A DNA stretch of 64,000 nt from a virus (lineage: Duplodnaviria > Caudoviricetes). Where the stretch lies: positions 1-64,000 of the IMG/VR virus record IMGVR_UViG_3300028588_000015. The stretch is one strand, 5' to 3'. Position numbers and translations under genes: made by a program. Shown piece by piece: positions 12,747-50,900 of the stretch; position 1 is the stretch's first letter; each line of letters starts with the position of its first letter. The notes under the pieces were generated by a model that did not search any database, was not told the DNA's origin, and saw only the letters and a list, made by a program, of their open reading frames with translations.

Positions 12747-13151
12747 ATGGCCACAACCTTTAAACTCAACGGCATCTATCGCTTCGATTTGCAAGCACCC
12801 AGCATCTTGGGGGCCAGCCTCAAGAACGTAACAGTCGTGTCGACGATGACGGAGCGCAGTGCAATCCGCGCTGGTTTGGCCACCCGTGAAATCCACGCCA
12901 AGATTTACAGCCAACTGCCGGTAGGCACGCCCAACAACCCGGATGCTTACACCTACGTCGAATTCCGCACCATGAGTGGCGAGACTGTGATCATGGGCCT
13001 GCCGTGGATCAAGCAAGAAAGTATCGAAGAGATTACGTTGCGCCCCTACAACGTACGTTTCGATGATCTTCCAGCAGTCGACCTGGAACGCCTGAGTCAC
13101 CTTCTTCTCACCGGTGGCTTCAAGAAGTTCACTATCGCACTGGCCGAGTAA
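12747..13151 (+). CDS. Conserved phiKZ-like hypothetical protein
   Basis: 134-aa ORF, AGGA RBS; precedes the DNA polymerase as in related phages. Confidence 0.75.
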   Translation: MATTFKLNGIYRFDLQAPSILGASLKNVTVVSTMTERSAIRAGLATREIHAKIYSQLPVGTPNNPDAYTYVEFRTMSGETVIMGLPWIKQESIEEITLRPYNVRFDDLPAVDLERLSHLLLTGGFKKFTIALAE

Positions 13152-13240
13152 CCAAACGTTGCGTAATGTATGTTATGTGAAAGAAACGTGATGGTGAACT
13201 AGTTTTTTTACTGGGTTACCGTATGTTTTGAGTAGTAAGA

Positions 13241-13529
13241 GGGGTCAGGCTTACCCCGCTGCTTGCGACCGGCACACCGTAACACTCTCCCCGCCGGGCG
13301 TGAGAACCTCCATACGCAAGGAGGATGCCAACAACCGCTGCCAATGCCCGATTTGACCGTCTTCCTTCTTTCTACGGTTAAATTCTTGTTAGATCGATTG
13401 CACACTTGCGCTCCACCGTTTCCCCTCTTTCCGGTGGATTGATGCGTGCGCGATTGACGGGTGGCGCCGTTTGTGAAGTACTGCGTTTTACGGGGACGGG
13501 GCCTTCGGGTCTCGTCCTCTTTTTTTTTT
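13241..13529 (+). ncRNA. Candidate sRNA or leader with twin pyrimidine-loop hairpins
   Basis: Hairpins 13241-57, 13307-24, 13353-81 and 13412-38 in a 450-nt intergenic gap, ending in a strong terminator. Confidence 0.55.
13492..13529 (+). terminator. Strong intrinsic terminator
   Basis: GGGGACGGGGCC-TTCG-GGTCTCGTCCTC with a C(UUCG)G loop and a 10-T run, 74 nt before the DNA polymerase start. Confidence 0.85.
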
Positions 13530-13602
13530 ATTCCGATCTTTTTTCTTTTGCGAAAAAATACCCAACCATGGCATCTTGTGATACCAATAAGGAGTTGCTT
13601 TC

Positions 13603-15768
13603 ATGAATGCACTGGTTGATAACCCATTTATCCTGCCCATCGAAGAATACAAGCGGGACATTGATCCCATGGGTCACTATGCCGATGATGTTGCCTGCTA
13701 CCTGGCTATCATGTCGGATAAAACCAAAGAATACACACGGCCCTACGTCGATCGCCAACTGGGCAAAGGTGGTCGGTTTGAATTCAAAGACCCGCAAGCG
13801 TACTTCCTGTACCGCCAATCGAATGGCGACCGCATCCGGCGTGCCATGCCGTTCTTGGGGTATTTGAACGAAGCGATCAAGAACCAAGAACTCATCGCCG
13901 CCACGTTCACGACTTATATCCACCCATCGAAGAAACAGTCGCTTCTCGTCGACTACATCGACGATAACGTGGCCGGGCGCAGTAAAGCCAAGAAAGCAAT
14001 GTTTGCGGCAAAGGCAGCGGGCGATAAAGCTACTCAGCTACTGAAAAAGATTGAGCAGAATAACCGCAAGATTCGCAACAATGCAATTTCGGGCTCGCAC
14101 CAGACACCATCGACCCCAATGTACAATCCAACGGGGCACAGTACTTTGACGTCGACCTGCCGTGTGACTTCCGGTTATGGTAACGTCAACAACGAGAAGT
14201 TCGTGGCCGGTAATCGACATTACTGGTCACCGCAGGTGACGTTGAACAATATCATCTCGATTGTCAACCACAGCGATTACCAGGCAATCCGGGCGGTGAT
14301 CGAAAAGTACGATCTGGTTTACCCATCGGTGCAAGATACGATGGATTGCATCAGCTTTTCGACCAATCTGTATTGGCCGTTTATGCCAGAAGCCCTTGCC
14401 CGTATCCGTTTGTTTGTTGAAAAGTTGACACCGATACAACGCGCCGCGTTTGTTTACACGGGTGACATGTATCACCTGATGAAACATAACGAAGTGATGG
14501 TGCGTACCTTCTTGGACAAACTATCGCATCGGGCTACGGTTCCGCATACTGACTCTGAACGTATCATCTCGACGGTTCGTGGTGACTACTTGAATTTGGC
14601 TGGTTCGATTTGTGCCGATATTATCATTGCGGCCGCCGAAGGCAAGAACGCTGAACCGCCGTACGGCGCACTCAAAGATAAACCGGTGTACGGGATTATC
14701 GCAGCTACTGCTGAAAATGTTGCGAATGTCTTGGCCGATTATTCTGACCTGATCAAAGCTTTTTGGGTCACGTCCAACGTCCCGGCTTCGCTTGCTAAAT
14801 TGCCCGAGAGCATTCGCCGGGTAGCGCTGGTGTCGGACACCGACTCGACAATCTTTACGGTACAAGAATGGGTGATCTGGCATCAAGGCCGTCCAGGCTT
14901 CGATCCGCAGTGTAAGGCTATCGGCTCATGTATGATCTTCTTGGCATCGCAAACTGTCACCCACTTGTTGGCTAAGATGTCGGCCAACTTCGGTATCGAG
15001 CAAAAGCGTCTTCTTCAGATCGCCATGAAGAATGAGTATTACTTCGACGTGTTTGTACCGACCCGTGTGGCTAAACACTACTACGCGGTCAAGTCGATTC
15101 AGGAGGGTCAAATCTTCGCCGAACTCGAAGAAGAGATCAAGGGTGTGCACTTGAAGTCGTCCAATGTATCCAAGGAAGTCATTAAGGAAGCGGCGGTCAT
15201 GATGCGTGACATCATGGACATGGTGATGGCGGAACGCAAGATCAATCTGTACGACATGGTCAAACGGGTGGCGGACGTAGAGCGCCGGGTGATCGAAACC
15301 ATTCGACGTGGCGACTCCGACTACTTCAAGCAGACACAGATCAAGAACGCTGAGTCGTACACGAAAGACAAGGGCGATTCACCATACCAACACCACACCT
15401 TCTGGCAAGAAGTGTTTGCACCCAAGTACGGCTATGCAGAAGAACCGCCGTACGCTGTGCTGAAGATTTCGGTGGACTTGTCCTCCAACGTCAAGATGCG
15501 CCAGTGGATGGAAAGCTTCAAGGACCGCGAACTGGCGAAACGCTTGGAAGCATATATCGCCAAGACGGGAAAGATGAAAAACATCACCACGTTCCAGTTG
15601 CCACAACCGGTGATTGCACAATGTGGTATCCCGGAAGAAATATTTCAAATGATCGACTATCGGAGGATAGTCATGGATACGGTGAAGGTGTTTTACCTCG
15701 TATTAGAGTGTATCGGGTGGTTTATGGCGACCCCAAGGCTCACTCGGTTAGTTTCTGATGATTATTAA
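13603..15768 (+). CDS. Family-B DNA polymerase, C-terminal (polymerase) part (phiKZ gp50-like)
   Basis: Motif B-like KIEQNNRKIRNNAISG and motif C SDTDS; no exonuclease motifs. Confidence 0.88.
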   Translation: MNALVDNPFILPIEEYKRDIDPMGHYADDVACYLAIMSDKTKEYTRPYVDRQLGKGGRFEFKDPQAYFLYRQSNGDRIRRAMPFLGYLNEAIKNQELIAATFTTYIHPSKKQSLLVDYIDDNVAGRSKAKKAMFAAKAAGDKATQLLKKIEQNNRKIRNNAISGSHQTPSTPMYNPTGHSTLTSTCRVTSGYGNVNNEKFVAGNRHYWSPQVTLNNIISIVNHSDYQAIRAVIEKYDLVYPSVQDTMDCISFSTNLYWPFMPEALARIRLFVEKLTPIQRAAFVYTGDMYHLMKHNEVMVRTFLDKLSHRATVPHTDSERIISTVRGDYLNLAGSICADIIIAAAEGKNAEPPYGALKDKPVYGIIAATAENVANVLADYSDLIKAFWVTSNVPASLAKLPESIRRVALVSDTDSTIFTVQEWVIWHQGRPGFDPQCKAIGSCMIFLASQTVTHLLAKMSANFGIEQKRLLQIAMKNEYYFDVFVPTRVAKHYYAVKSIQEGQIFAELEEEIKGVHLKSSNVSKEVIKEAAVMMRDIMDMVMAERKINLYDMVKRVADVERRVIETIRRGDSDYFKQTQIKNAESYTKDKGDSPYQHHTFWQEVFAPKYGYAEEPPYAVLKISVDLSSNVKMRQWMESFKDRELAKRLEAYIAKTGKMKNITTFQLPQPVIAQCGIPEEIFQMIDYRRIVMDTVKVFYLVLECIGWFMATPRLTRLVSDDY

Positions 15769-17974: not shown

Positions 17975-19933
17975 ATGGGTATCAAAGACGACAACACTCA
18001 AACCGCTCTCGGCGCCGCCATGAATAAAGCCGGTGCATCGAGCCAAGGTCAGCAACCGCAACAACCGCAGAGCAACCAGAACTACGTGCCGCCGGCTGGC
18101 AACCAGCAACAACAACCGGCCAACCGCGGCTGGGCATCGCTGGGCGCCGACATCCAGTACGCGATTCCGCTGAATAGCACCAGCGAAACCCTGGCCAAGT
18201 TCACCAAGTCGCTGCAAGACGTGATCGACGGCCACCGTTCGGATACCAGCCAAGTCGATGTGACCCTGATCCCGGTCGACCGCAACGACGGCGCCAACGG
18301 CGTGCCGATCTCGTACCTGATCGTCGCGACCCGCCTGAAAGCGAACAAGGACGCCGGCGTCGGCTACCAAGCCCTGATCATCGAAGGCTCGATCGATGCG
18401 ATCGCGACCACCGAAGAATACGTGCCGGGCGCGCCGAATGGCAAGGTCACCGTGACGCGTACCGCGGGCGATGCGGACGTTCCGGCGGTACGTGAAACGA
18501 TCAACAAGATCGTGCAGCGCTACTTCCAGACCGACCGCACCTTCGGCGCCATCGCTATGGTCGTGCCGCGTACCTTCACCGACAACCTGGTCGACGTCGC
18601 CTCGCTGAAGAACCTGGCATCGCAGGCGTCCTACAATGCCGCCCTGGCACTGCAAGTGCGCCTGGGCGTGCAGCCGCTGAACGTGGCCAACTTCATCGGC
18701 GGCGGCGATGCGCTGCAAGCCAAGCTGTCGCTCGATCCGCGCCCGGTTCCCAACCTGTTCAACCAGCCGGTGCGCTCCGACATCAAGCTGCAACTGATCT
18801 CGGAACCGACCGCCAAGTCGACCATCCCGGGCTTCGGCCCCACCGGCAGCACCCTGCTGGCGGAAATCTCGGCGTACGTCGAGCCGATCTACCAGCCGAA
18901 GCTGCCCCAGGTCAACGGCCTACCCAACATGCCGATGTTCGGCGGCCCGACCCCGGACATGTACCGCAAGTACATCCCGCGTATCGTCCTGACCGAAATG
19001 CGTTCGGAACGTCTGCGTACCATCGGCGGCCAGCTGCTGGCCCTGGTGGCAGCAATCTCGCTGCGCAACAACGACACCTGGCTGGCCACGTTCATGCCGA
19101 ACCGTTCGATCCCGGCTGGTGAAATCGACCTGCACGACATCGGCGCCCTGAACCTGGAAGTGAACTACCTGGGCGATCCGACCGTCCGCGGCGAGCCGTT
19201 CGACATCCGCGCCGACAACGTCAACACGCCGGCACTGATGGCCTACATGCGCGCGATCTTCCACGAAGGTGTGGTGTTCGCGATCGACGTCTCGACCCGT
19301 GGTCCGGACACCGCCTACAACGGTGCACTGGCAGCGGCCGACGATGGCGACACCGCAGCGATCAACGCGGTGCTGGAAGCAGCGAACCACCTGTCCAACG
19401 GCAACTTCGCCAACATGTGGCCGAAGGACGGCGAAGTCACGCTGAAGAAAGGCGAGACCATCTACCTGGGTCACTACCGTCGTGCCAACGGCGAACTGCG
19501 CGACCTGCGTGAATTGCAAGACTACCTGGCGATGATGAACCTGCTGGGTCGTACTGCACCGGATCTGGTCCGCGACTTCTCGGACACCTTCCTGCAAACG
19601 CAGTACCCGGAACCGATGCGTCTGGCCGCGCGCCTGGAAATCATGCGCAAAGTCGACCCGGCGCTGGTCGTGACCGGTACCGCGCGTCGCGTGACCCTGA
19701 CCGGTATGTTCACCGACATCCTGCCCAAGGCCATCGCGAAGACCAACGTGTCGATCCCGCTGACCGGCAACACCCACCTCGACACCGGCACTGCCGATCG
19801 CGCTGTGGGCAACTTCGGTGCCGGCCTGGTGGCAGGTGGTACGTTCGACATGTACAACCGTACCGTCAACACCCAGAACCCGGTCGGCGCGACGGGTGGC
19901 AACACCTTCGCCAATCTGTACACCGGCGTCTAA
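17975..19933 (+). CDS. chmA: Chimallin, phage nuclear shell protein (phiKZ gp54 / 201phi2-1 gp105-like)
   Basis: 652 aa, Q-rich disordered N-terminus, extreme high-expression codon bias, directly upstream of nvRNAP beta'-N as in Chimalliviridae. Confidence 0.88.
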   Translation: MGIKDDNTQTALGAAMNKAGASSQGQQPQQPQSNQNYVPPAGNQQQQPANRGWASLGADIQYAIPLNSTSETLAKFTKSLQDVIDGHRSDTSQVDVTLIPVDRNDGANGVPISYLIVATRLKANKDAGVGYQALIIEGSIDAIATTEEYVPGAPNGKVTVTRTAGDADVPAVRETINKIVQRYFQTDRTFGAIAMVVPRTFTDNLVDVASLKNLASQASYNAALALQVRLGVQPLNVANFIGGGDALQAKLSLDPRPVPNLFNQPVRSDIKLQLISEPTAKSTIPGFGPTGSTLLAEISAYVEPIYQPKLPQVNGLPNMPMFGGPTPDMYRKYIPRIVLTEMRSERLRTIGGQLLALVAAISLRNNDTWLATFMPNRSIPAGEIDLHDIGALNLEVNYLGDPTVRGEPFDIRADNVNTPALMAYMRAIFHEGVVFAIDVSTRGPDTAYNGALAAADDGDTAAINAVLEAANHLSNGNFANMWPKDGEVTLKKGETIYLGHYRRANGELRDLRELQDYLAMMNLLGRTAPDLVRDFSDTFLQTQYPEPMRLAARLEIMRKVDPALVVTGTARRVTLTGMFTDILPKAIAKTNVSIPLTGNTHLDTGTADRAVGNFGAGLVAGGTFDMYNRTVNTQNPVGATGGNTFANLYTGV

Positions 19934-31182: not shown

Positions 31183-31250
31183 CTGAGATTGGTACATTCG
31201 TCATACAAGACTGTTGTTACAACACGAACGAAAGAAGGAAGACAACGCAA

Positions 31251-33419
31251 ATGCCATATGGAAGCAATCCATCAGCAGCATATTACATCAAGACCGAGTT
31301 CAATGAACTGAGAAGGGAGTTCTTAGGTGTTTGTGGGTTAAATCCTTGGTTTCCACACGATTCATCCCCGCGTCAACAGATGTTTGCCAGCCATCTCGGG
31401 CAAGCTCTGGTAATTAACGGGGTCACGCGCCGGTTCTTCCAGACTGGCATGGAACGTGAATACGGGAAGTACACGTTCTCGGTGAAGATGCCTGTCACCG
31501 GTGACATCATCAAAATCGTGGAGCGTTATCGTCGTGGCATCAGCGCAGGCTCGGTGAATCCGCCGAAGAGTCCGCAGACTTTGCTGATCTACGAAAACTA
31601 CGCAACTAAGGAAATCGGGTTCGTGGATTTGCCCACGCACTCGAAGAATCACCCGTACTTTGGTTTCGAGTACCAAGCGACGGACGCCCTCAAAGGTATC
31701 CTTCGCGGTGAACTCCATAGCAATTCGGTGATGGAAGGGAAAATCTTCCTCGATTCACCCGCGAAAGACGCCAAAGGCAATTACGGCTTCGGCATGGAAG
31801 TACCGATGGCGTTCATGACGCTGCCGGGTACCTCCGAGGACAGTGTGGTGGTATCGGACGAATTGTTGCCGCACATGCGCTTCACGATCACGGAACGCCA
31901 CATCGTGGAGTGCGGTCGGGATACCTTCCCGCTCAATATGTTCGGCCACATCAAGCCAGACGGTACGGTGGTGTACAAACCATTCCCGGAAATCGGTGAA
32001 TACATCCGCAGCGATGGTTTGGTCATGGCGACCCGTAAGTACAATGACAATTCAGCATTGTTCGAAATGGGTCTGCATGACACGATGACACTTAACATTC
32101 CGTTCGACTACCCGTGCTACGCGACACCCGGCAAGGGTAAGATTGTCGACATCATCGTACGTCATGACCCGATGAACAACACCGGGTTGGTACCGTTCGG
32201 CATGGACGAGTACTTCAAGAAGTACGACACCGGCATGCGTCAGTTTTACCAGGAGATTTTTTCGGAGTACAAGCGTTTGCTCAGAACGCGTGGTGCGGCA
32301 TTGAAGTTAACGCCTGCCTTCAGTACCCTGGTGGAAGAAGCCATCGCCATGGTGGGCGACCATAAAGAACGCATCCACATGCACCGTCGGCGTAAACCGC
32401 TTGACGACTACACGGTGGAGTTCGTGATCGAGTACGAAGTAACACCGACCGAGGGCTTCAAGCTCACCGACTGTCACGGTGGTAAAGGCGTGATCTGTAA
32501 GATTATGCGGGCAGCTGACATGCCGGTGGACGAAAAGGGTAACCGGGCCATGATCGTGATGGACCCGAACTCAACCGTCTCGCGGATGAACCTTGGCCGC
32601 CTGTACGAGCAGTTCCAAAGCGCGTCGCGCCGTGATGTACGGGTACGTCTGCAAGAAATGCTGGGGATCGAACACAAAGACCCTCAGGCGATTGCGAAGG
32701 TCCAGCGGATTCAGCACAGCGATCCAGTGCTCTTTAATAAGGCATGGGATTATCTGTTGGGTTTCTACAAGATCATTTCGCCCGAGCAGTACAATTGGTT
32801 CATCAGTGGCGAGTACGAAAAGCCGGCGTATGAAACCATTGGCAAGGTGATCGCCGATGATCTCTTCGTTTTCCTGCCGACTGAAAATCAGCCGGAGTCG
32901 GAGCAGATCGTACAAGACCTGTGGAAGTATTACCCACCCACCTACGGGCCGGTGTGGTACACAGGCAATTCGGGACGGCGTATCAAGACCAAAGTGAATG
33001 TCATGATCGGCCACATGTACGTCATGTTGCTGGAAAAGACAGGTGACGATTGGACGGCAGTCTCGACCAGCCGTACCCAGCACTTCGGTGTGCCGTCGCA
33101 GATGACCAATGCCACGAAGTATCTGCAACCCACCCGCACCTCACCCGTGCGTTCGGATGGTGAAGCAGAAGAAAGGATCTTTGCATCGTACTGTGGCTGG
33201 GGGTTGGTGGCCGAGCGTAACGACCGCAACAACAATCCAGTCACACACCGGGAAGTCGCGTATTCAATTCTGACGGCCGATAAGCCGACAGACATTGCGG
33301 CAGCTGTTGACCGTGAAAAGAATCCTTTGGGTAAGAATCGCCCACTGGTAATGACAAAACACATGATCCAAGTCGGTGGCACGGTGCTGACTTACGAAGA
33401 CGTTGGTTTTACGCATTAA
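31251..33419 (+). CDS. Non-virion RNA polymerase beta C-terminal subunit (gp71-73-like)
   Basis: DSSPRQQM, EDSVV, GFKLTDCHGGKGVI and SRMNLGRLYE motifs of RNAP beta. Confidence 0.9.
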   Translation: MPYGSNPSAAYYIKTEFNELRREFLGVCGLNPWFPHDSSPRQQMFASHLGQALVINGVTRRFFQTGMEREYGKYTFSVKMPVTGDIIKIVERYRRGISAGSVNPPKSPQTLLIYENYATKEIGFVDLPTHSKNHPYFGFEYQATDALKGILRGELHSNSVMEGKIFLDSPAKDAKGNYGFGMEVPMAFMTLPGTSEDSVVVSDELLPHMRFTITERHIVECGRDTFPLNMFGHIKPDGTVVYKPFPEIGEYIRSDGLVMATRKYNDNSALFEMGLHDTMTLNIPFDYPCYATPGKGKIVDIIVRHDPMNNTGLVPFGMDEYFKKYDTGMRQFYQEIFSEYKRLLRTRGAALKLTPAFSTLVEEAIAMVGDHKERIHMHRRRKPLDDYTVEFVIEYEVTPTEGFKLTDCHGGKGVICKIMRAADMPVDEKGNRAMIVMDPNSTVSRMNLGRLYEQFQSASRRDVRVRLQEMLGIEHKDPQAIAKVQRIQHSDPVLFNKAWDYLLGFYKIISPEQYNWFISGEYEKPAYETIGKVIADDLFVFLPTENQPESEQIVQDLWKYYPPTYGPVWYTGNSGRRIKTKVNVMIGHMYVMLLEKTGDDWTAVSTSRTQHFGVPSQMTNATKYLQPTRTSPVRSDGEAEERIFASYCGWGLVAERNDRNNNPVTHREVAYSILTADKPTDIAAAVDREKNPLGKNRPLVMTKHMIQVGGTVLTYEDVGFTH

Positions 33420-33470
33420 TGCGCCCCTGGTGAGCAAGAAAGAGGGCCGGGGAAAAGAAACGGAGGAACG

Positions 33471-35576
33471 ATGAAGAAACTGAAACGCATTAAAGCACGT
33501 GTTTTACTGGATTACACGCAAGAGCAGTTGTGGCAAAAGTTTCACGGGGCGTTCACGCTGGTGTTTGATGACGGTTTTGCCATCGACACCAATGCCCGTG
33601 AAACGATCTTTTCGAGTTACGGTTGGGAACTGTTGCGGGTGTACCGTGATACCCCGCTGCTGTATCGACACCATGTGCGCTTCGTCCTCAAGGGTGGCCT
33701 GCTCAACGCCGACACCCACTTGAAGATGTTGGGTGAGGTCATGTGGTCGGTGTACGATCAATACAAGTTGCCGAATTACATGGCACGGCTTTTGACGGTC
33801 GATCCGGTGACAAAGCAAGTCCACGAACGGCTGGTGGAAGAAATCGATCTGCGCGAACATCTGTTCAAACGGGTCTACGAACTCACCAACTACATTTACA
33901 ACGATCTTACCCATCGCTGTGAAGAGTACGTGGTTTCGCTTAACATCCTGGACTTCATGGAGGTGTTGGCGCATCCGGTGATCCGCAAGATCAACAACGA
34001 GCTTCAACCCATTCCGGCCTCGATCAATAACGCGTACAAGGTGGTCAAAAAGACACTGGAAAACGCGCCTGAACTGCAAAAGAATCCGTTGGCCAAAGCG
34101 GTGCATTCCAAGACTGTGAAGGTTGACCAGCTGATGCAGTGTATCACGGCGCGTGGCACACTCACGGACGTGGACTCATATGTGTTCCGGCCACCGGTGC
34201 TACGTGGTTATGCGCGCGGCTTCCGCAGTGTCTACGAGGCGCTCGTGGAATCGCGCTCGGCTGCCAAAAGCTTGGCGTCGTCCAAGGCCCAGTTGCAAGA
34301 TGCCGAGTATTTCTCGCGCCGCTTGCAACTAATCGACCAGATCATGCAGAATTTGCACATGGCCGATTGCGGCAGTACGGATTACGTGGAGTGGCTGATC
34401 CGTGGCGAAGAGTTGGAGGGCGGTCGGGTGCGCCGCAAGTCCGATCTCAAAACCATGGCTGGTAAGCGGTACATGGACGACGATGGCGTCCTCAAGGTCA
34501 TCCATGAAGACGACAAGTCGCTGATCGGGCGTAAGCTCAAGATGCGCTTGGTGCGCAAGTGTCACCACCCAGATCCGTATGGTATTTGCAGTATGTGTTT
34601 CGGTGAACTGGCATTGTCCATACCGCGTGGCTCGAACATCGGCCACATGTGTTGTACGCACATGACGCAAAAGAGTAGCCAATCCGTGCTGTCCCTGAAA
34701 CACTTGGACATGAGTTCGGACGTCGACGGCGTGGTGATCAATTCGATGATGCGCAAGTTCGTGCGTGCCTCCGAAGACGAAAGCTCGTACGTGCTGGCAC
34801 CCGAACTGAAGGACGCCGAGGCGGTAAAACTCATCGTCGCCCCGTCGCAAGCACGCGGTTTGTCCGATGTCAAGGACGTGGAAGAAGTCGACAAGCTGAG
34901 CCTGACGCACGTCTCCGAGATGGAAACCATCACCATCGAGATCACGTACGAAGGGCAAGTTGTGCCCGAAGTGGTGTTCGTGCGCCAAGCAAATCGGTTG
35001 GCCAGTATGACGCATGAACTGCTCGACTATGTGAAGACGTTTGGTGTGACCACTGACACCGGCACGGGCAATTTCGTGATCGATATGGTGAACTGGGACT
35101 GGACGTTGCCGTTCTTAACGTTGCCGCCGAAGCACTTTAATATGAGCGACCACTCGGCCGCCATTGCGAAGATGCTGGAGTCCACGGTGAAGGATGTGGA
35201 TGCCCGCGACACCGAGACTGACCCGATCGAGTTCTTAAAAGAGTTCCACGATCTGGTCAATGATAAGTTGATGGTGAACTTTGCTGTCAATGAAATCATC
35301 GTCGAAGGCGTCATGATTCGTTCGGCCAAAGACTTCGATTACCGGTTGCCAAAGCCGGGGACCGAGGCCGGCCTAGGTGTGCGCTCCAACATTATGGAGT
35401 ACCGCAGTGCTACCGCGCGTTTTGCCTTCCAAGGCCATCGCGAGTTCTTGCTGAACCCAGCGTCGTACCTGAAGTTCATCAACGAGCGCCGCCCGAACCA
35501 TCCGATGGACGGGATCGTGATGCCGCTTGAAGTGGCGAAAGCCGAAAAGAAACGGACCGGTTGGACTGTCGACTGA
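33471..35576 (+). CDS. Non-virion RNA polymerase beta' C-terminal subunit (gp74-like)
   Basis: YFSRRLQ bridge-helix-like segment, DCGS, C..PDPYGIC..CFG Zn motif, QSVLSLKH. Confidence 0.88.
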   Translation: MKKLKRIKARVLLDYTQEQLWQKFHGAFTLVFDDGFAIDTNARETIFSSYGWELLRVYRDTPLLYRHHVRFVLKGGLLNADTHLKMLGEVMWSVYDQYKLPNYMARLLTVDPVTKQVHERLVEEIDLREHLFKRVYELTNYIYNDLTHRCEEYVVSLNILDFMEVLAHPVIRKINNELQPIPASINNAYKVVKKTLENAPELQKNPLAKAVHSKTVKVDQLMQCITARGTLTDVDSYVFRPPVLRGYARGFRSVYEALVESRSAAKSLASSKAQLQDAEYFSRRLQLIDQIMQNLHMADCGSTDYVEWLIRGEELEGGRVRRKSDLKTMAGKRYMDDDGVLKVIHEDDKSLIGRKLKMRLVRKCHHPDPYGICSMCFGELALSIPRGSNIGHMCCTHMTQKSSQSVLSLKHLDMSSDVDGVVINSMMRKFVRASEDESSYVLAPELKDAEAVKLIVAPSQARGLSDVKDVEEVDKLSLTHVSEMETITIEITYEGQVVPEVVFVRQANRLASMTHELLDYVKTFGVTTDTGTGNFVIDMVNWDWTLPFLTLPPKHFNMSDHSAAIAKMLESTVKDVDARDTETDPIEFLKEFHDLVNDKLMVNFAVNEIIVEGVMIRSAKDFDYRLPKPGTEAGLGVRSNIMEYRSATARFAFQGHREFLLNPASYLKFINERRPNHPMDGIVMPLEVAKAEKKRTGWTVD

Positions 35577-49089: not shown

Positions 49090-49914
49090 ATGCATCCAGC
49101 GATGCCGGCCTATTTCACACGCGGATACGTTCGCCAAGTGCAAATGGCCCTGAATGAGAAGACCAAAAGCACTCTCCCCACGACTGGTCGCTTTAATGCC
49201 GCGTGGGTGGTGGTACTGAAAAAATGTCAGATTCTGTGCGGTATTTTGCCGACCGGTAAGTACGACAGTATGACCCAGGCTGAACTCGAGCCTTTCATGA
49301 TGCGCAAGTATCTTCAGCCGCAGGATTACGACGACGTTGCCGAGTTACTTGGCTGCGACAGTGCGACGATCCTGGCTGTGGCCAAAACCTTTATGACGGG
49401 TTCTGGCTTCATCAGCAATGGTAAATGTCGCATTACGTTTAACCGTAATAAGTTCAGCCATGAACTGCGTAAACAGCGCTCAAACGGAGACATTGCCGCC
49501 TTGCACCGAAAGTACCCCTCGATTGTCTCGGACACGAGTGGCGGCTATCTGTGCGAAGAATATGAGTATATACGGTTCTGTGAAGCCATCGGAATCGATT
49601 CGTACAGTGCCATGAAGTCCACGCATTGGGGGATGTTCCAAATCCCTGGTGCCAACTACCGCCAGTGTGGTTACAGCACCTTGACGTCGTTCGGGGTTGA
49701 CATGCAGCAATCGGAACGCCATCAGTTGTTTGCGTTGGCAAGGTTTATCAAAGCGTCGCCAGTTCTGGCAAAGGCGCTCAAAGAAAAGAAGTGGGAAGAC
49801 TTCTGTCGTGAGTATGCGGGTGCTGGATACAAGACGTACCAGTTTCACCTGATCCTCGCCGCCAACTACAAAGACTTGAGCCTGATCAAGATGCGCACCA
49901 AGACGCCCGCGTGA
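49090..49914 (+). CDS. PG-binding plus N-acetylmuramidase (DUF3380)-like protein, catalytic residues degenerate
   Basis: PGBD-like N-terminus; STHWGMFQIPGANYRQCGY and QLFALARFIK; family VES and FERH positions read FMT and FNRN. Confidence 0.72.
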   Translation: MHPAMPAYFTRGYVRQVQMALNEKTKSTLPTTGRFNAAWVVVLKKCQILCGILPTGKYDSMTQAELEPFMMRKYLQPQDYDDVAELLGCDSATILAVAKTFMTGSGFISNGKCRITFNRNKFSHELRKQRSNGDIAALHRKYPSIVSDTSGGYLCEEYEYIRFCEAIGIDSYSAMKSTHWGMFQIPGANYRQCGYSTLTSFGVDMQQSERHQLFALARFIKASPVLAKALKEKKWEDFCREYAGAGYKTYQFHLILAANYKDLSLIKMRTKTPA

Positions 49915-49915
49915 G

Positions 49916-49964
49916 CGGCATAAAGGGAGAAGCTTTCGCCTCTCCCGTTTTTTCTTTTATGCCG
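49916..49964. terminator. Bidirectional terminator flanked by CGGCATAA/TTATGCCG
   Basis: GGGAGA/TCTCCC stem between convergent genes. Confidence 0.8.
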
Positions 49965-50900
49965 CTATTTCAAAGAACGATGCATGAGCTTCTCAATACC
50001 GGCTACCATGTCAGCCAAATGACGTACCACACCGCGCGCTACCCTAAACTCAGCTTCGTCAAATGCATCACGAGTGAAGGGTTCTATTACGTTTTGTTTT
50101 TCGAAAGGTAATTCAAAATAATCTTCATAATGCATTCCGATGCCGTCAAACCCGGTATCCTCTCCGGTTCTGTTGTCCCACAAAGTGGATATGCTTTCTT
50201 CCACGTCATCGAGCATTTCCAGTACAAGGTTAGCCGCTTTCGCGATTTCTTCTTTGGTAAGTGATTTTACATCTGGAGAACGATGCCTGTAATTTGTTTT
50301 ATGTAGGGAGTATCTCATCATTGATGCCCCCTTTTTTTCTTCTAGGAAGTGCCCGCCAGGCAGCTGTTCGATACGTTTCCCTATTTTTGCTAAAGGAGAA
50401 ATGAGTTCTGGCAATTTCTCCTTAAGAGTACTCAGTACATTATCGATGTCTTTTCCATAGACGCCTTTCAATGCACTCTTGGCAAACTCCTCGCGCTGTA
50501 GTGTAATTCTTGCAAAATCGTGACACCAATGTACGATATCTTTACTCCCCTTGGACGCTGCTGAAAGAATCGAAGAATTTAAATGTCCGTTTACTTCAAA
50601 GAGTGGCGCGATATCGTTAACATGTATTAATCCATCAACAGTTTTCTGTTTTTCCAACCAGTCCTTATTACCGTAATATGAATCGATATTGTTTCTCAAT
50701 TCATTGAGGTACTCACGTTCGTCCTCGCCGTGCTGAATTCGGTTAGATAATGATGGCTTATTTGAAAGGAATGGCAATAGCTCATGCATCGCTGATGAAA
50801 AGGATTCTGCGGCGTAGTGCAATGTTTGGTGCTGTTGGTGAACACGCAACAGCGCTTGGCGGATATTCTTGGACATGACTTCCTCGCAATTGGGTAACAT
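49965..50900 (-). CDS. AT-rich hypothetical protein (possibly a virion-protein paralogue)
   Basis: 311-aa ORF; sampled lines are about 37-38% GC. Confidence 0.7.
   Translation of the reverse strand: MLPNCEEVMSKNIRQALLRVHQQHQTLHYAAESFSSAMHELLPFLSNKPSLSNRIQHGEDEREYLNELRNNIDSYYGNKDWLEKQKTVDGLIHVNDIAPLFEVNGHLNSSILSAASKGSKDIVHWCHDFARITLQREEFAKSALKGVYGKDIDNVLSTLKEKLPELISPLAKIGKRIEQLPGGHFLEEKKGASMMRYSLHKTNYRHRSPDVKSLTKEEIAKAANLVLEMLDDVEESISTLWDNRTGEDTGFDGIGMHYEDYFELPFEKQNVIEPFTRDAFDEAEFRVARGVVRHLADMVAGIEKLMHRSLK

Follow-up and report, generated by a model that had tools for sequence, protein, structure and literature searches.

The window analysed here comprises the first 64 kb (positions 1-64,000) of the 225.5-kb IMG/VR record IMGVR_UViG_3300028588_000015, which by its gene content is the genome of a phiKZ-like, nucleus-forming jumbo phage; all positions are window coordinates. 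A gap of 451 nt, 13152-13602, separates the gene for SH3DP (SH3-fold protein associated with phage DNA polymerases) from the DNA polymerase gene. Comparison with related genomes predicts that this gap encodes a structured non-coding RNA of ~300 nt on the plus strand, at about 13225-13529, and it is very likely that the RNA is functional. The first-pass annotation, made from the sequence of the window alone, had placed a candidate small RNA (sRNA) with twin hairpins in this ~450-nt gap. Of that proposal, a discrete and conserved non-coding RNA on the plus strand, closed by a strong terminator, is supported. Rather than a small RNA with twin hairpins, however, it is one multi-domain RNA of ~300 nt with three loops rich in C and U (CU loops).

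The structure was derived from four genomes (G000-G003), consisting of this phage (G000) and three IMG/VR relatives with 79-82% identity in the polymerase. The three relatives keep a gap of 413-454 nt at the equivalent place, and the four gaps align at 75-77% identity with blocks of invariant sequence. The RNAalifold consensus contains 83 pairs. Of the 332 pair cells 96.1% are paired, compared with 41-50% when the partners are slid by 1-3 columns. Changes on both sides of a pair are seen in 21 pairs, against 1-4 in the slid control and 9.5 +/- 2.1 in the shuffled control, and none of the 500 shuffles reached 21. The shuffle control overstates the significance because only four related sequences are compared; the slid control is the fairer of the two, and its result is clear. 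Hairpin B was misaligned by MAFFT and was therefore excluded from the pair count. The signal is specific to one strand. The plus-strand fold has z = -2.4 relative to dinucleotide shuffles, the minus-strand fold has z = -0.07, and many invariant G-U pairs are compatible with the plus strand alone.

The cores of three apical loops, CUCUCCC (loop A), UUCCUUCUU (loop B) and CCCUCUUU (loop C), are identical in the four genomes, whose stems differ. A comparison of loops with stems in relatives had been named beforehand as one test that could refute the sRNA proposal, and its outcome, invariant loops on covarying stems, upholds it. The loop cores are predicted to be single-stranded, with an unpaired probability of 0.82-1.0 across genomes except for loop A in L004 (0.51); the value for the whole RNA is 0.35-0.41. 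Loop A scores 0.96 in this phage, and the cores of loops B and C each score 1.00. Exposed C/U-rich apical loops are thus predicted on three hairpins, where trans-acting sRNAs of the RNAIII/RsaE/LhrC type have two or more.

The conserved structured part spans ~290 nt (13241-13529; Table 1). A 5' series of hairpins (P2, P3 and P4) is followed by a long-range helix (P5) around a three-way junction, and then by the terminator. P2 has counterparts at the matching place in more distant spacers, GGGC/GCCC in Burkholderia phage FLC9 and GGGU/ACCC in L014. P3 presents loop A, a third conserved pyrimidine loop (CUCUCCCC, 13285-13292) which the first-pass annotation overlooked; in its stem (helix 4) 6 of the 9 pairs have changed on both sides. 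The long-range helix P5, also overlooked, joins both twin hairpins into one domain. It closes the three-way junction bearing loops B and C, and its helices (7 and 8) show 97.5-100% pairing across the four genomes. The junction holds hairpin B, a mini-hairpin, and P7 with hairpin C on top. When each sequence is folded alone the arms of hairpin B differ among the four genomes and always pair: UUGACCGU/ACGGUUAA, UAGCUCGU/GCGAGUUA, AUCCAUCUAU/AUGGGUGGAU and GUCACCUG/CAGGUGAC. Helices 10 and 11 (P7 and hairpin C) are 96-98% paired, with 7 pairs changed on both sides. The features listed in the first pass, that is, the twin hairpins with their 13-nt all-pyrimidine loops, the further hairpins GGGGT/ACCCC and CCTCC/GGAGG, and the UUCG terminator with its 10-T run, are all present. 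Two additional contacts are suggested by the folds. A GUAGUA/UACUGC helix (13232-13237 with 13479-13484) closes the whole RNA in the minimum-energy fold of this phage only, and the relatives are unable to form it. The second, a possible pseudoknot, would join the P4 loop (ACGCA) to the conserved UGCGU motifs at 13442-13446 and 13481-13485, with which it shares complementarity.

The predicted 3' end of the RNA is firm and lies at a phiKZ-type terminator, a type that consists of a hairpin and a TTAT-containing tail (PMC10914365). The intrinsic terminator at 13492-13529 is of this type and lies upstream of the start of the next gene; its T run ends 74 nt before the polymerase ATG (13603). The terminator helix (helix 12) shows 100% pairing and includes 2 compensatory pairs, and in the relatives the hairpin precedes TTTTATGCCG, a phiKZ-type terminator motif. 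Such tails recur elsewhere. TTTATGCC occurs 32 times in the intergenic DNA of this genome, and TTTATGCC or TTATGCCG stands 3' of hairpins at ~30 intergenic places, 20 on the plus strand and 12 on the minus strand. This terminator-tail motif is the published phiKZ motif, and it is kept in relatives whose polymerase is merely 31-50% identical.

The 5' end is placed provisionally at a conserved block that precedes the first supported helix. The T7AC of this block is invariant in the four close genomes and L013, and a recognisable form of the block is present in FLC9, L013 and L014. It contains a TAC/TTAC core and TATG, resembling the phiKZ middle and late promoter motifs (PMC4666361). T7AC occurs at just 2 intergenic places genome-wide, so it is not a general promoter motif. 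A scan for sigma-70 promoters gave no match, in keeping with what is expected of phages of this group. A second promoter-like motif, AAAAAATACC, is conserved in the four genomes, with similar motifs in L012, L014 and others, and agrees with the phiKZ middle-promoter motif AAanTTACc at 8 of 9 positions (PMC4666361). Because this conserved motif lies 3' of the terminator and matches the phiKZ motif, it suggests that the polymerase gene has its own promoter there. The RNA may equally be an extended 3' untranslated region (UTR) of the SH3DP transcript, since in relatives with short spacers the terminator directly follows the SH3DP stop codon.

The RNA matches no known family. At gathering thresholds none of the 4227 models of Rfam 15 matched anywhere in the window, and a permissive search gave 0 matches in 12900-13800 at E <= 10. 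ARAGORN found no tRNA or tmRNA, and a covariance model found no second copy of the RNA in the genome. A hidden small protein was considered and rejected: the open reading frames (ORFs) in the gap differ in every relative and none is shared. A group I intron joining SH3DP and the polymerase was also rejected, because the SH3DP stop codon and the ribosome-binding site and ATG of the polymerase are conserved and the short-spacer relatives carry two genes; there was no Rfam intron match.

The layout extends beyond the four close genomes. By polymerase, the closest cultured relatives are FLC9 (50.5%) and the Ralstonia phages RP12 and RP31 (47%). SH3DP, spacer and polymerase in this order, with spacers of 290-650 nt, are found in FLC9 and many metagenomic relatives, and Pfam confirmed the long-spacer layout in FLC9, L013, L014, L020, L023, L028 and L057. 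An upstream ORF could be identified in 70 further IMG/VR relatives; in 37 of them the spacer measures at least 200 nt, mostly 300-650 nt. Long spacers are essentially confined to relatives whose polymerase is at least ~43% identical to that of this phage; spacers of only 60-110 nt are found in more distant relatives (35-37%) and, among the closer ones, also in RP12 and RP31. Folding of 14 family spacers gave the more stable structure on the plus strand in every case. Ten of the 14 have predicted CU-rich hairpin loops on that strand, against a single such loop on the minus strand, and loops of this kind are also predicted in 20 of the 37 further long spacers; they include UUACCUCCUUUC, UUUCCUCCUUGUUUC, UCCUCCUUU and UUUUACUCCUUAU. 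The covariance model R1, built from the four close sequences, matches distant members only at their terminators. A MAFFT alignment with FLC9, L013, L014 and L057 is unreliable beyond the 5' domain and was not used for pair counts. Because R1 reaches distant members by the terminator alone, the case for a family-wide homology of the whole RNA is built on synteny, on the 5' block and P2 that members share, and on the loop theme. A spacer of ~540 nt also lies between SH3DP and the polymerase in Pseudomonas phage 201phi2-1 (NC_010821, 42454-42997; locus L129, 933-1476). It has an annotated reverse-strand hypothetical ORF, gp82, with two flanking terminators, and no CU loops were seen in it.

Pairing with phage ribosome-binding sites is, tentatively, the best single mechanism for the action of this RNA. 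Either the promoter-like block would drive transcription of the ~300-nt plus-strand RNA, or the RNA would arise as an extended SH3DP 3' UTR; in both cases it would end at the phiKZ-type intrinsic terminator. The 5' three-hairpin series and the 3' three-way-junction domain would display the three invariant, single-stranded, pyrimidine-rich loops, which are similar to the 3' tail of 16S rRNA. In trans, these loops would base-pair with mRNAs of the phage itself at their purine-rich ribosome-binding sites, and the pairing would lower or time translation of the bound messages. Candidate messages are those of the gp71-like and gp74-like genes of the non-virion RNA polymerase (nvRNAP), a 134-amino-acid (aa) gene and a 175-aa gene, and the target set would drift between lineages. 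The U10 tail after the terminator hairpin, typical of Hfq-type sRNAs, speaks for such a role. A broader version appears doubtful. It holds that a phage-clade "anti-Shine-Dalgarno RNA", made by the phage nvRNAP, masks the ribosome-binding sites of a changing set of messages including those of polymerase subunits, and so would give cytoplasmic post-transcriptional feedback or an early-to-late switch outside the phage nucleus.

The loops had been described in the first pass as anti-Shine-Dalgarno-like, and complementarity to ribosome-binding sites is indeed seen for phage genes. The longest perfect complement of each loop was sought in the whole genome, on both strands and with the locus masked, and compared with 2000 scrambled loops each. 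For loop B it measures 14 nt in G000 (P = 0.034) and in G001 (P = 0.007), and 13 nt in G002 (P = 0.034) and in G003 (P = 0.030). For loop C it measures 18 nt in G002 (P = 0.0015). The complements of at least 12 nt number seven, and every one of them is a sense-strand site with an ATG 1-7 nt further downstream. These results give moderate support to specificity of pairing and fit a regulator with drifting targets. They are not proof, because purine-rich start sites are a natural place for any CU-rich complement.

Individual sites show the same drift. At the gp71-like site of the three relatives both the loop flanks and the site differ and only AAGGAA/UUCCUU is left; the 14-nt match of this phage is therefore lineage-specific. 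The 175-aa gene, to which no function is assigned, has complements of 12, 13 and 11 nt in G001-G003 and of just 6 nt in this phage. The 134-aa gene has a complement of the invariant 9-nt core in three genomes and of 8 nt in G001, and the extensions of the site match the loop flank of each lineage. The 18-nt site of G002 spans the ribosome-binding site of a 53-aa ORF that is present in G002 and G003 alone. The counterpart of this pairing in G003 is interrupted, but it includes one U:A to A:U exchange. The 53-aa ORF itself (114131-114308 in G002, near 208564 in a re-oriented copy of G003) lies 3' of a terminator-like hairpin and was missed by a simple gene caller. G002 (IMGVR_UViG_3300034025_000120; loci L091 and L092) is also the relative in which the gp71-like gene is split (34109-35390). 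The matches to residues 1-418 and 410-722 lie ~1.3 kb from each other and are separated by a stop codon, and the other three genomes have one uninterrupted gene. Insertions of introns or homing endonucleases are known in chimallivirus RNA polymerase genes, and the split is, from its sequence, probably such an insertion.

A number of results weigh against pairing in trans. First, the 14-nt match to the gp71-like gene is absent in the relatives, where that gene ranks 75, 165 and 159. Second, the gp74-like 5' UTR tops an energy-based ranking of ~260 start regions per genome, combined over 76 ortholog families, loop C placing it at ranks 2, 1, 7 and 1 in the four genomes. Because 80% of this UTR is purine, however, composition-matched scrambled loops likewise give it first place, in 28 of 40 and 23 of 40 trials, and the advantage of the true loop there is only marginal (-2.93 versus -2.28 +/- 0.32; 2 of 45 scrambles reach that value). 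Third, start regions with complements of at least 7, 8 or 9 nt are not clearly more frequent than for scrambled loops; in this site-count test loop B has P = 0.02-0.4 and loop C shows no excess. Fourth, when loops are swapped between genomes a genome's own loops have no advantage over foreign ones, and no co-change with the ribosome-binding-site signature is seen. Fifth, the top-ranked targets differ from genome to genome. Finally, a trans-acting RNA does not need strict synteny with the polymerase gene.

By the scrambled-loop control, the top rank of the gp74-like UTR is thus mostly an artefact of purine-richness. The UTR (33420-33470) is the second most purine-rich of 263 start regions and is purine-rich in all four genomes despite their divergence; AAAGAGGG is kept ~25-35 nt before the gp74-like start codon, upstream of a GGAGG Shine-Dalgarno sequence. 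Chimallin was not seen as a target of the loops, its start region ranking 67-247. No specific target is established among the candidates.

The loops could instead serve as a protein-binding scaffold or sponge, binding S1, Hfq or a nucleus-associated phage protein and titrating or recruiting it. They are fixed to the base, yet their complementary sites are no more numerous than those of scrambled loops, and a rigid scaffold bearing three similar loops would be well suited to bind protein multivalently. Ribosomal protein S1 prefers single-stranded pyrimidine- and U-rich RNA, and U-rich loops of the UCCUU type are kept over wide family divergence. No candidate protein is linked by the neighbourhood, however, where the neighbours are SH3DP and the polymerase, and the long perfect start-site complements exceed the scrambled null, which protein binding does not predict. 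This explanation is considered unlikely.

A cis-acting element is improbable. In this reading a long structured 3' UTR would stabilise or process the transcript of the SH3DP operon, or a leader containing the terminator would gate read-through into the polymerase, the latter having been raised in the first-pass annotation as a leader controlling polymerase expression. The place of the RNA between SH3DP and the polymerase never changes, and the short-spacer relatives have the terminator only, so that the RNA resembles an insertion between stop codon and terminator. Many 5'-UTR RNAs are made by premature termination in phiKZ and 201phi2-1 (PMC10914365, PMC11512511). The leader has no positive support, however. 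As a partner of any of the three loops the ribosome-binding site of the polymerase does very poorly, ranking 101-240 of ~260 in the four genomes; the conserved promoter-like AAAAAATACC comes after the terminator; no conserved antiterminator alternative is seen; and the terminator is very strong (12 bp, U10). A cis role as SH3DP 3' UTR is possible, but a stabilising 3' UTR has no need of fixed loop sequences.

Distinctly improbable is a large structural RNA in which the loops form tertiary or pseudoknot contacts, loop C with AAGAGGGG (13242-13249) and loop B with AAGGAGGA (13319-13326). These are 8-nt complements within the RNA, conserved in the four close genomes; both partners are invariant and so show no covariation. 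The purine tracts already form supported strands of P2 and P4, P2 with compensatory forms in FLC9 and L014, and the complement is not kept in either of these two. Hardly credible is a minus-strand RNA, whose purine loops would read AGAAAGAAGGAAG and GAAAGAGGGGAAA and, with a GGA that the first pass likened to CsrA/RsmA-binding loops, would act as a CsrA/RsmA sponge, or a DNA-level element such as an origin: that strand has no fold signal, no terminator in the terminator scan and greater stability in none of the 14 family spacers, many conserved G-U pairs would become C-A mismatches on it, and the cumulative GC-skew minimum is near 20 kb, not at this gap.

The setting of the RNA is summarized in Table 1. 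The genome encodes chimallin, a split multisubunit nvRNAP, and a family-B polymerase with SH3DP, the gene set of a chimallin-encoding jumbo phage; chimallin, the divergent polymerase, SH3DP and the gp71 and gp74 homologues are the basis for calling it phiKZ-like and nucleus-forming. Elsewhere in the window, the longest stem of the hairpin scan is a 20-bp perfect hairpin with the pyrimidine-rich loop TTTCGCCTCTCCC (49914-49966, plus strand).

Table 1. Elements of the predicted RNA, its flanking signals, candidate target sites and relevant genes (window coordinates)
Feature	Position	Strand	Remarks
SH3DP gene	12747-13151	+	Upstream gene; Pfam PF20287, E = 4e-25
Conserved 5' block	13203-13240	+	T7AC at 13203-13211, then GGGTTACCGTATGTTTTGAGTAGTAAG (GGGTTACCGTATG...); putative promoter and 5' end
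P2 hairpin, GGGGU/ACCCC	13241-13257	+	Helix 2, 95.8% paired
P3 hairpin with CU loop A	13262-13304	+	Helix 4; invariant core CUCUCCC at 13285-13291
P4 hairpin, CCUCC/GGAGG	13307-13324	+	Helix 5, 90% paired, one compensatory pair
Long-range helix P5, 5' strand	13331-13350	+	Pairs with 13458-13474
Hairpin B, arms TTGACCGT/ACGGTTAA	13353-13381	+	13-nt all-pyrimidine loop CUUCCUUCUUUCU at 13361-13373, invariant core UUCCUUCUU
Helix P7	13394-13405 with 13446-13457	+	Carries hairpin C at its top
Hairpin C, TCCACCG/CGGTGGA	13412-13438	+	13-nt all-pyrimidine loop UUUCCCCUCUUUC at 13419-13431, invariant core CCCUCUUU
Long-range helix P5, 3' strand	13458-13474	+	Pairs with 13331-13350
Intrinsic terminator	13492-13529	+	12-bp stem 13492-13519, UUCG loop, T10 at 13520-13529; terminator scan
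Terminator in FLC9 spacer			TTTATGCCG
Promoter-like motif AAAAAATACC	13553-13562	+	3' of terminator, before polymerase gene
Polymerase Shine-Dalgarno AAGGAG	13589-13594	+	
Divergent family-B DNA polymerase gene	13603-15768	+	Downstream gene; Pfam PF20286, E = 6e-247
Chimallin shell protein	17975-19933		Pfam PF25677
Candidate trans target GAAAGAAGGAAGAC	31230-31243	+	14-nt perfect complement of 13359-13372; 7 nt before ATG of gp71-like gene
nvRNAP gp71-like gene	31251-33419	+	PHIKZ071 homologue, E = 2e-131 (PDB 7OGP)
Candidate trans target GAAAGAGGG	33438-33446	+	Complementary to loop C; 5' UTR of gp74-like gene
nvRNAP gp74-like gene	33471-35576	+	PHIKZ074 homologue, E = 5e-96 (PDB 7OGP)

Gene regulation in nucleus-forming phages is known almost solely at the level of the two RNA polymerases. 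An RNA at a fixed spot in the replication/transcription block would be a handle on post-transcriptional control of messages that leave the phage nucleus for translation. The idea can be tested at the bench because the cultured phage FLC9 (LC667451), which infects Burkholderia glumae, has a homologous spacer, located between gp3 and gp2. For annotation, the "empty" 300-650-nt spacer before the polymerase gene in many jumbo-phage genomes would be a gene.

Non-coding RNA candidates have been reported in the same virus group. In phiKZ and 201phi2-1 they were found by ONT-cappable-seq and are 5'-UTR-derived and intergenic (PMC10914365, PMC11512511). The RNA described here is likewise intergenic, with a phiKZ-type hairpin and TTAT(G)CC terminator and a next gene that has its own start signals. 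The published candidates are shorter than 250 nt and have mapped ends, whereas this RNA is ~300 nt (to ~600 nt in relatives), is supported by covariation and has predicted ends. Neither paper reports a non-coding RNA at the polymerase gene or with such loops, and PMC11512511 does not contain the term "DNA polymerase" at all (0 occurrences). On non-coding RNAs, a 2026 review goes no further than stating that phiKZ expresses them, and a literature search on jumbo-phage sRNAs and Shine-Dalgarno pairing found nothing relevant. The GOLLD (RF01998) and ROOL (RF03087) RNAs are also large, multi-helix, phage-borne RNAs without a protein product. The RNA here is much smaller than these, matches no model and is not beside tRNAs, and its exposed CU loops suggest pairing, not cage assembly.

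The loops also bear a likeness to the 3' tail of 16S rRNA, the anti-Shine-Dalgarno sequence (...ACCUCCUU...). The tetramers CUCC, UCCU and CCUC, found in loops A, B and C respectively, overlap one another as parts of CCUCCU, and the relatives' loops UUACCUCCUUUC, UCCUCCUUU, UUUUACUCCUUAU and UUUCCUCCUUGUUUC resemble the ACCUCCUU tail in the same way. The phage sequences, unlike the tail, are displayed in the hairpin loops of a non-ribosomal RNA, and the apparent mimicry is a resemblance only. The closest parallels are the riboregulators with C-rich loops, namely Staphylococcus aureus RNAIII (RF00503), RsaE/RoxS, Listeria LhrC and Mycobacterium 6C, which form a functional class and not a homology family. 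These likewise have several hairpins with C/U-rich apical loops and an intrinsic terminator. Their loops are complementary to Shine-Dalgarno regions of specific targets, as those of the phage RNA may be, and multi-target regulation through redundant loops is the expected mode. The phage RNA has no sequence or Rfam similarity to them and is encoded by a lytic nucleus-forming phage; its loops are U-rich (UUCCUUCUU, CCCUCUUU) rather than UCCC, and its predicted targets are the phage's own messages. The RNA represents an undescribed family, a variation in a nucleus-forming phage on the theme of riboregulators with C/U-rich loops.

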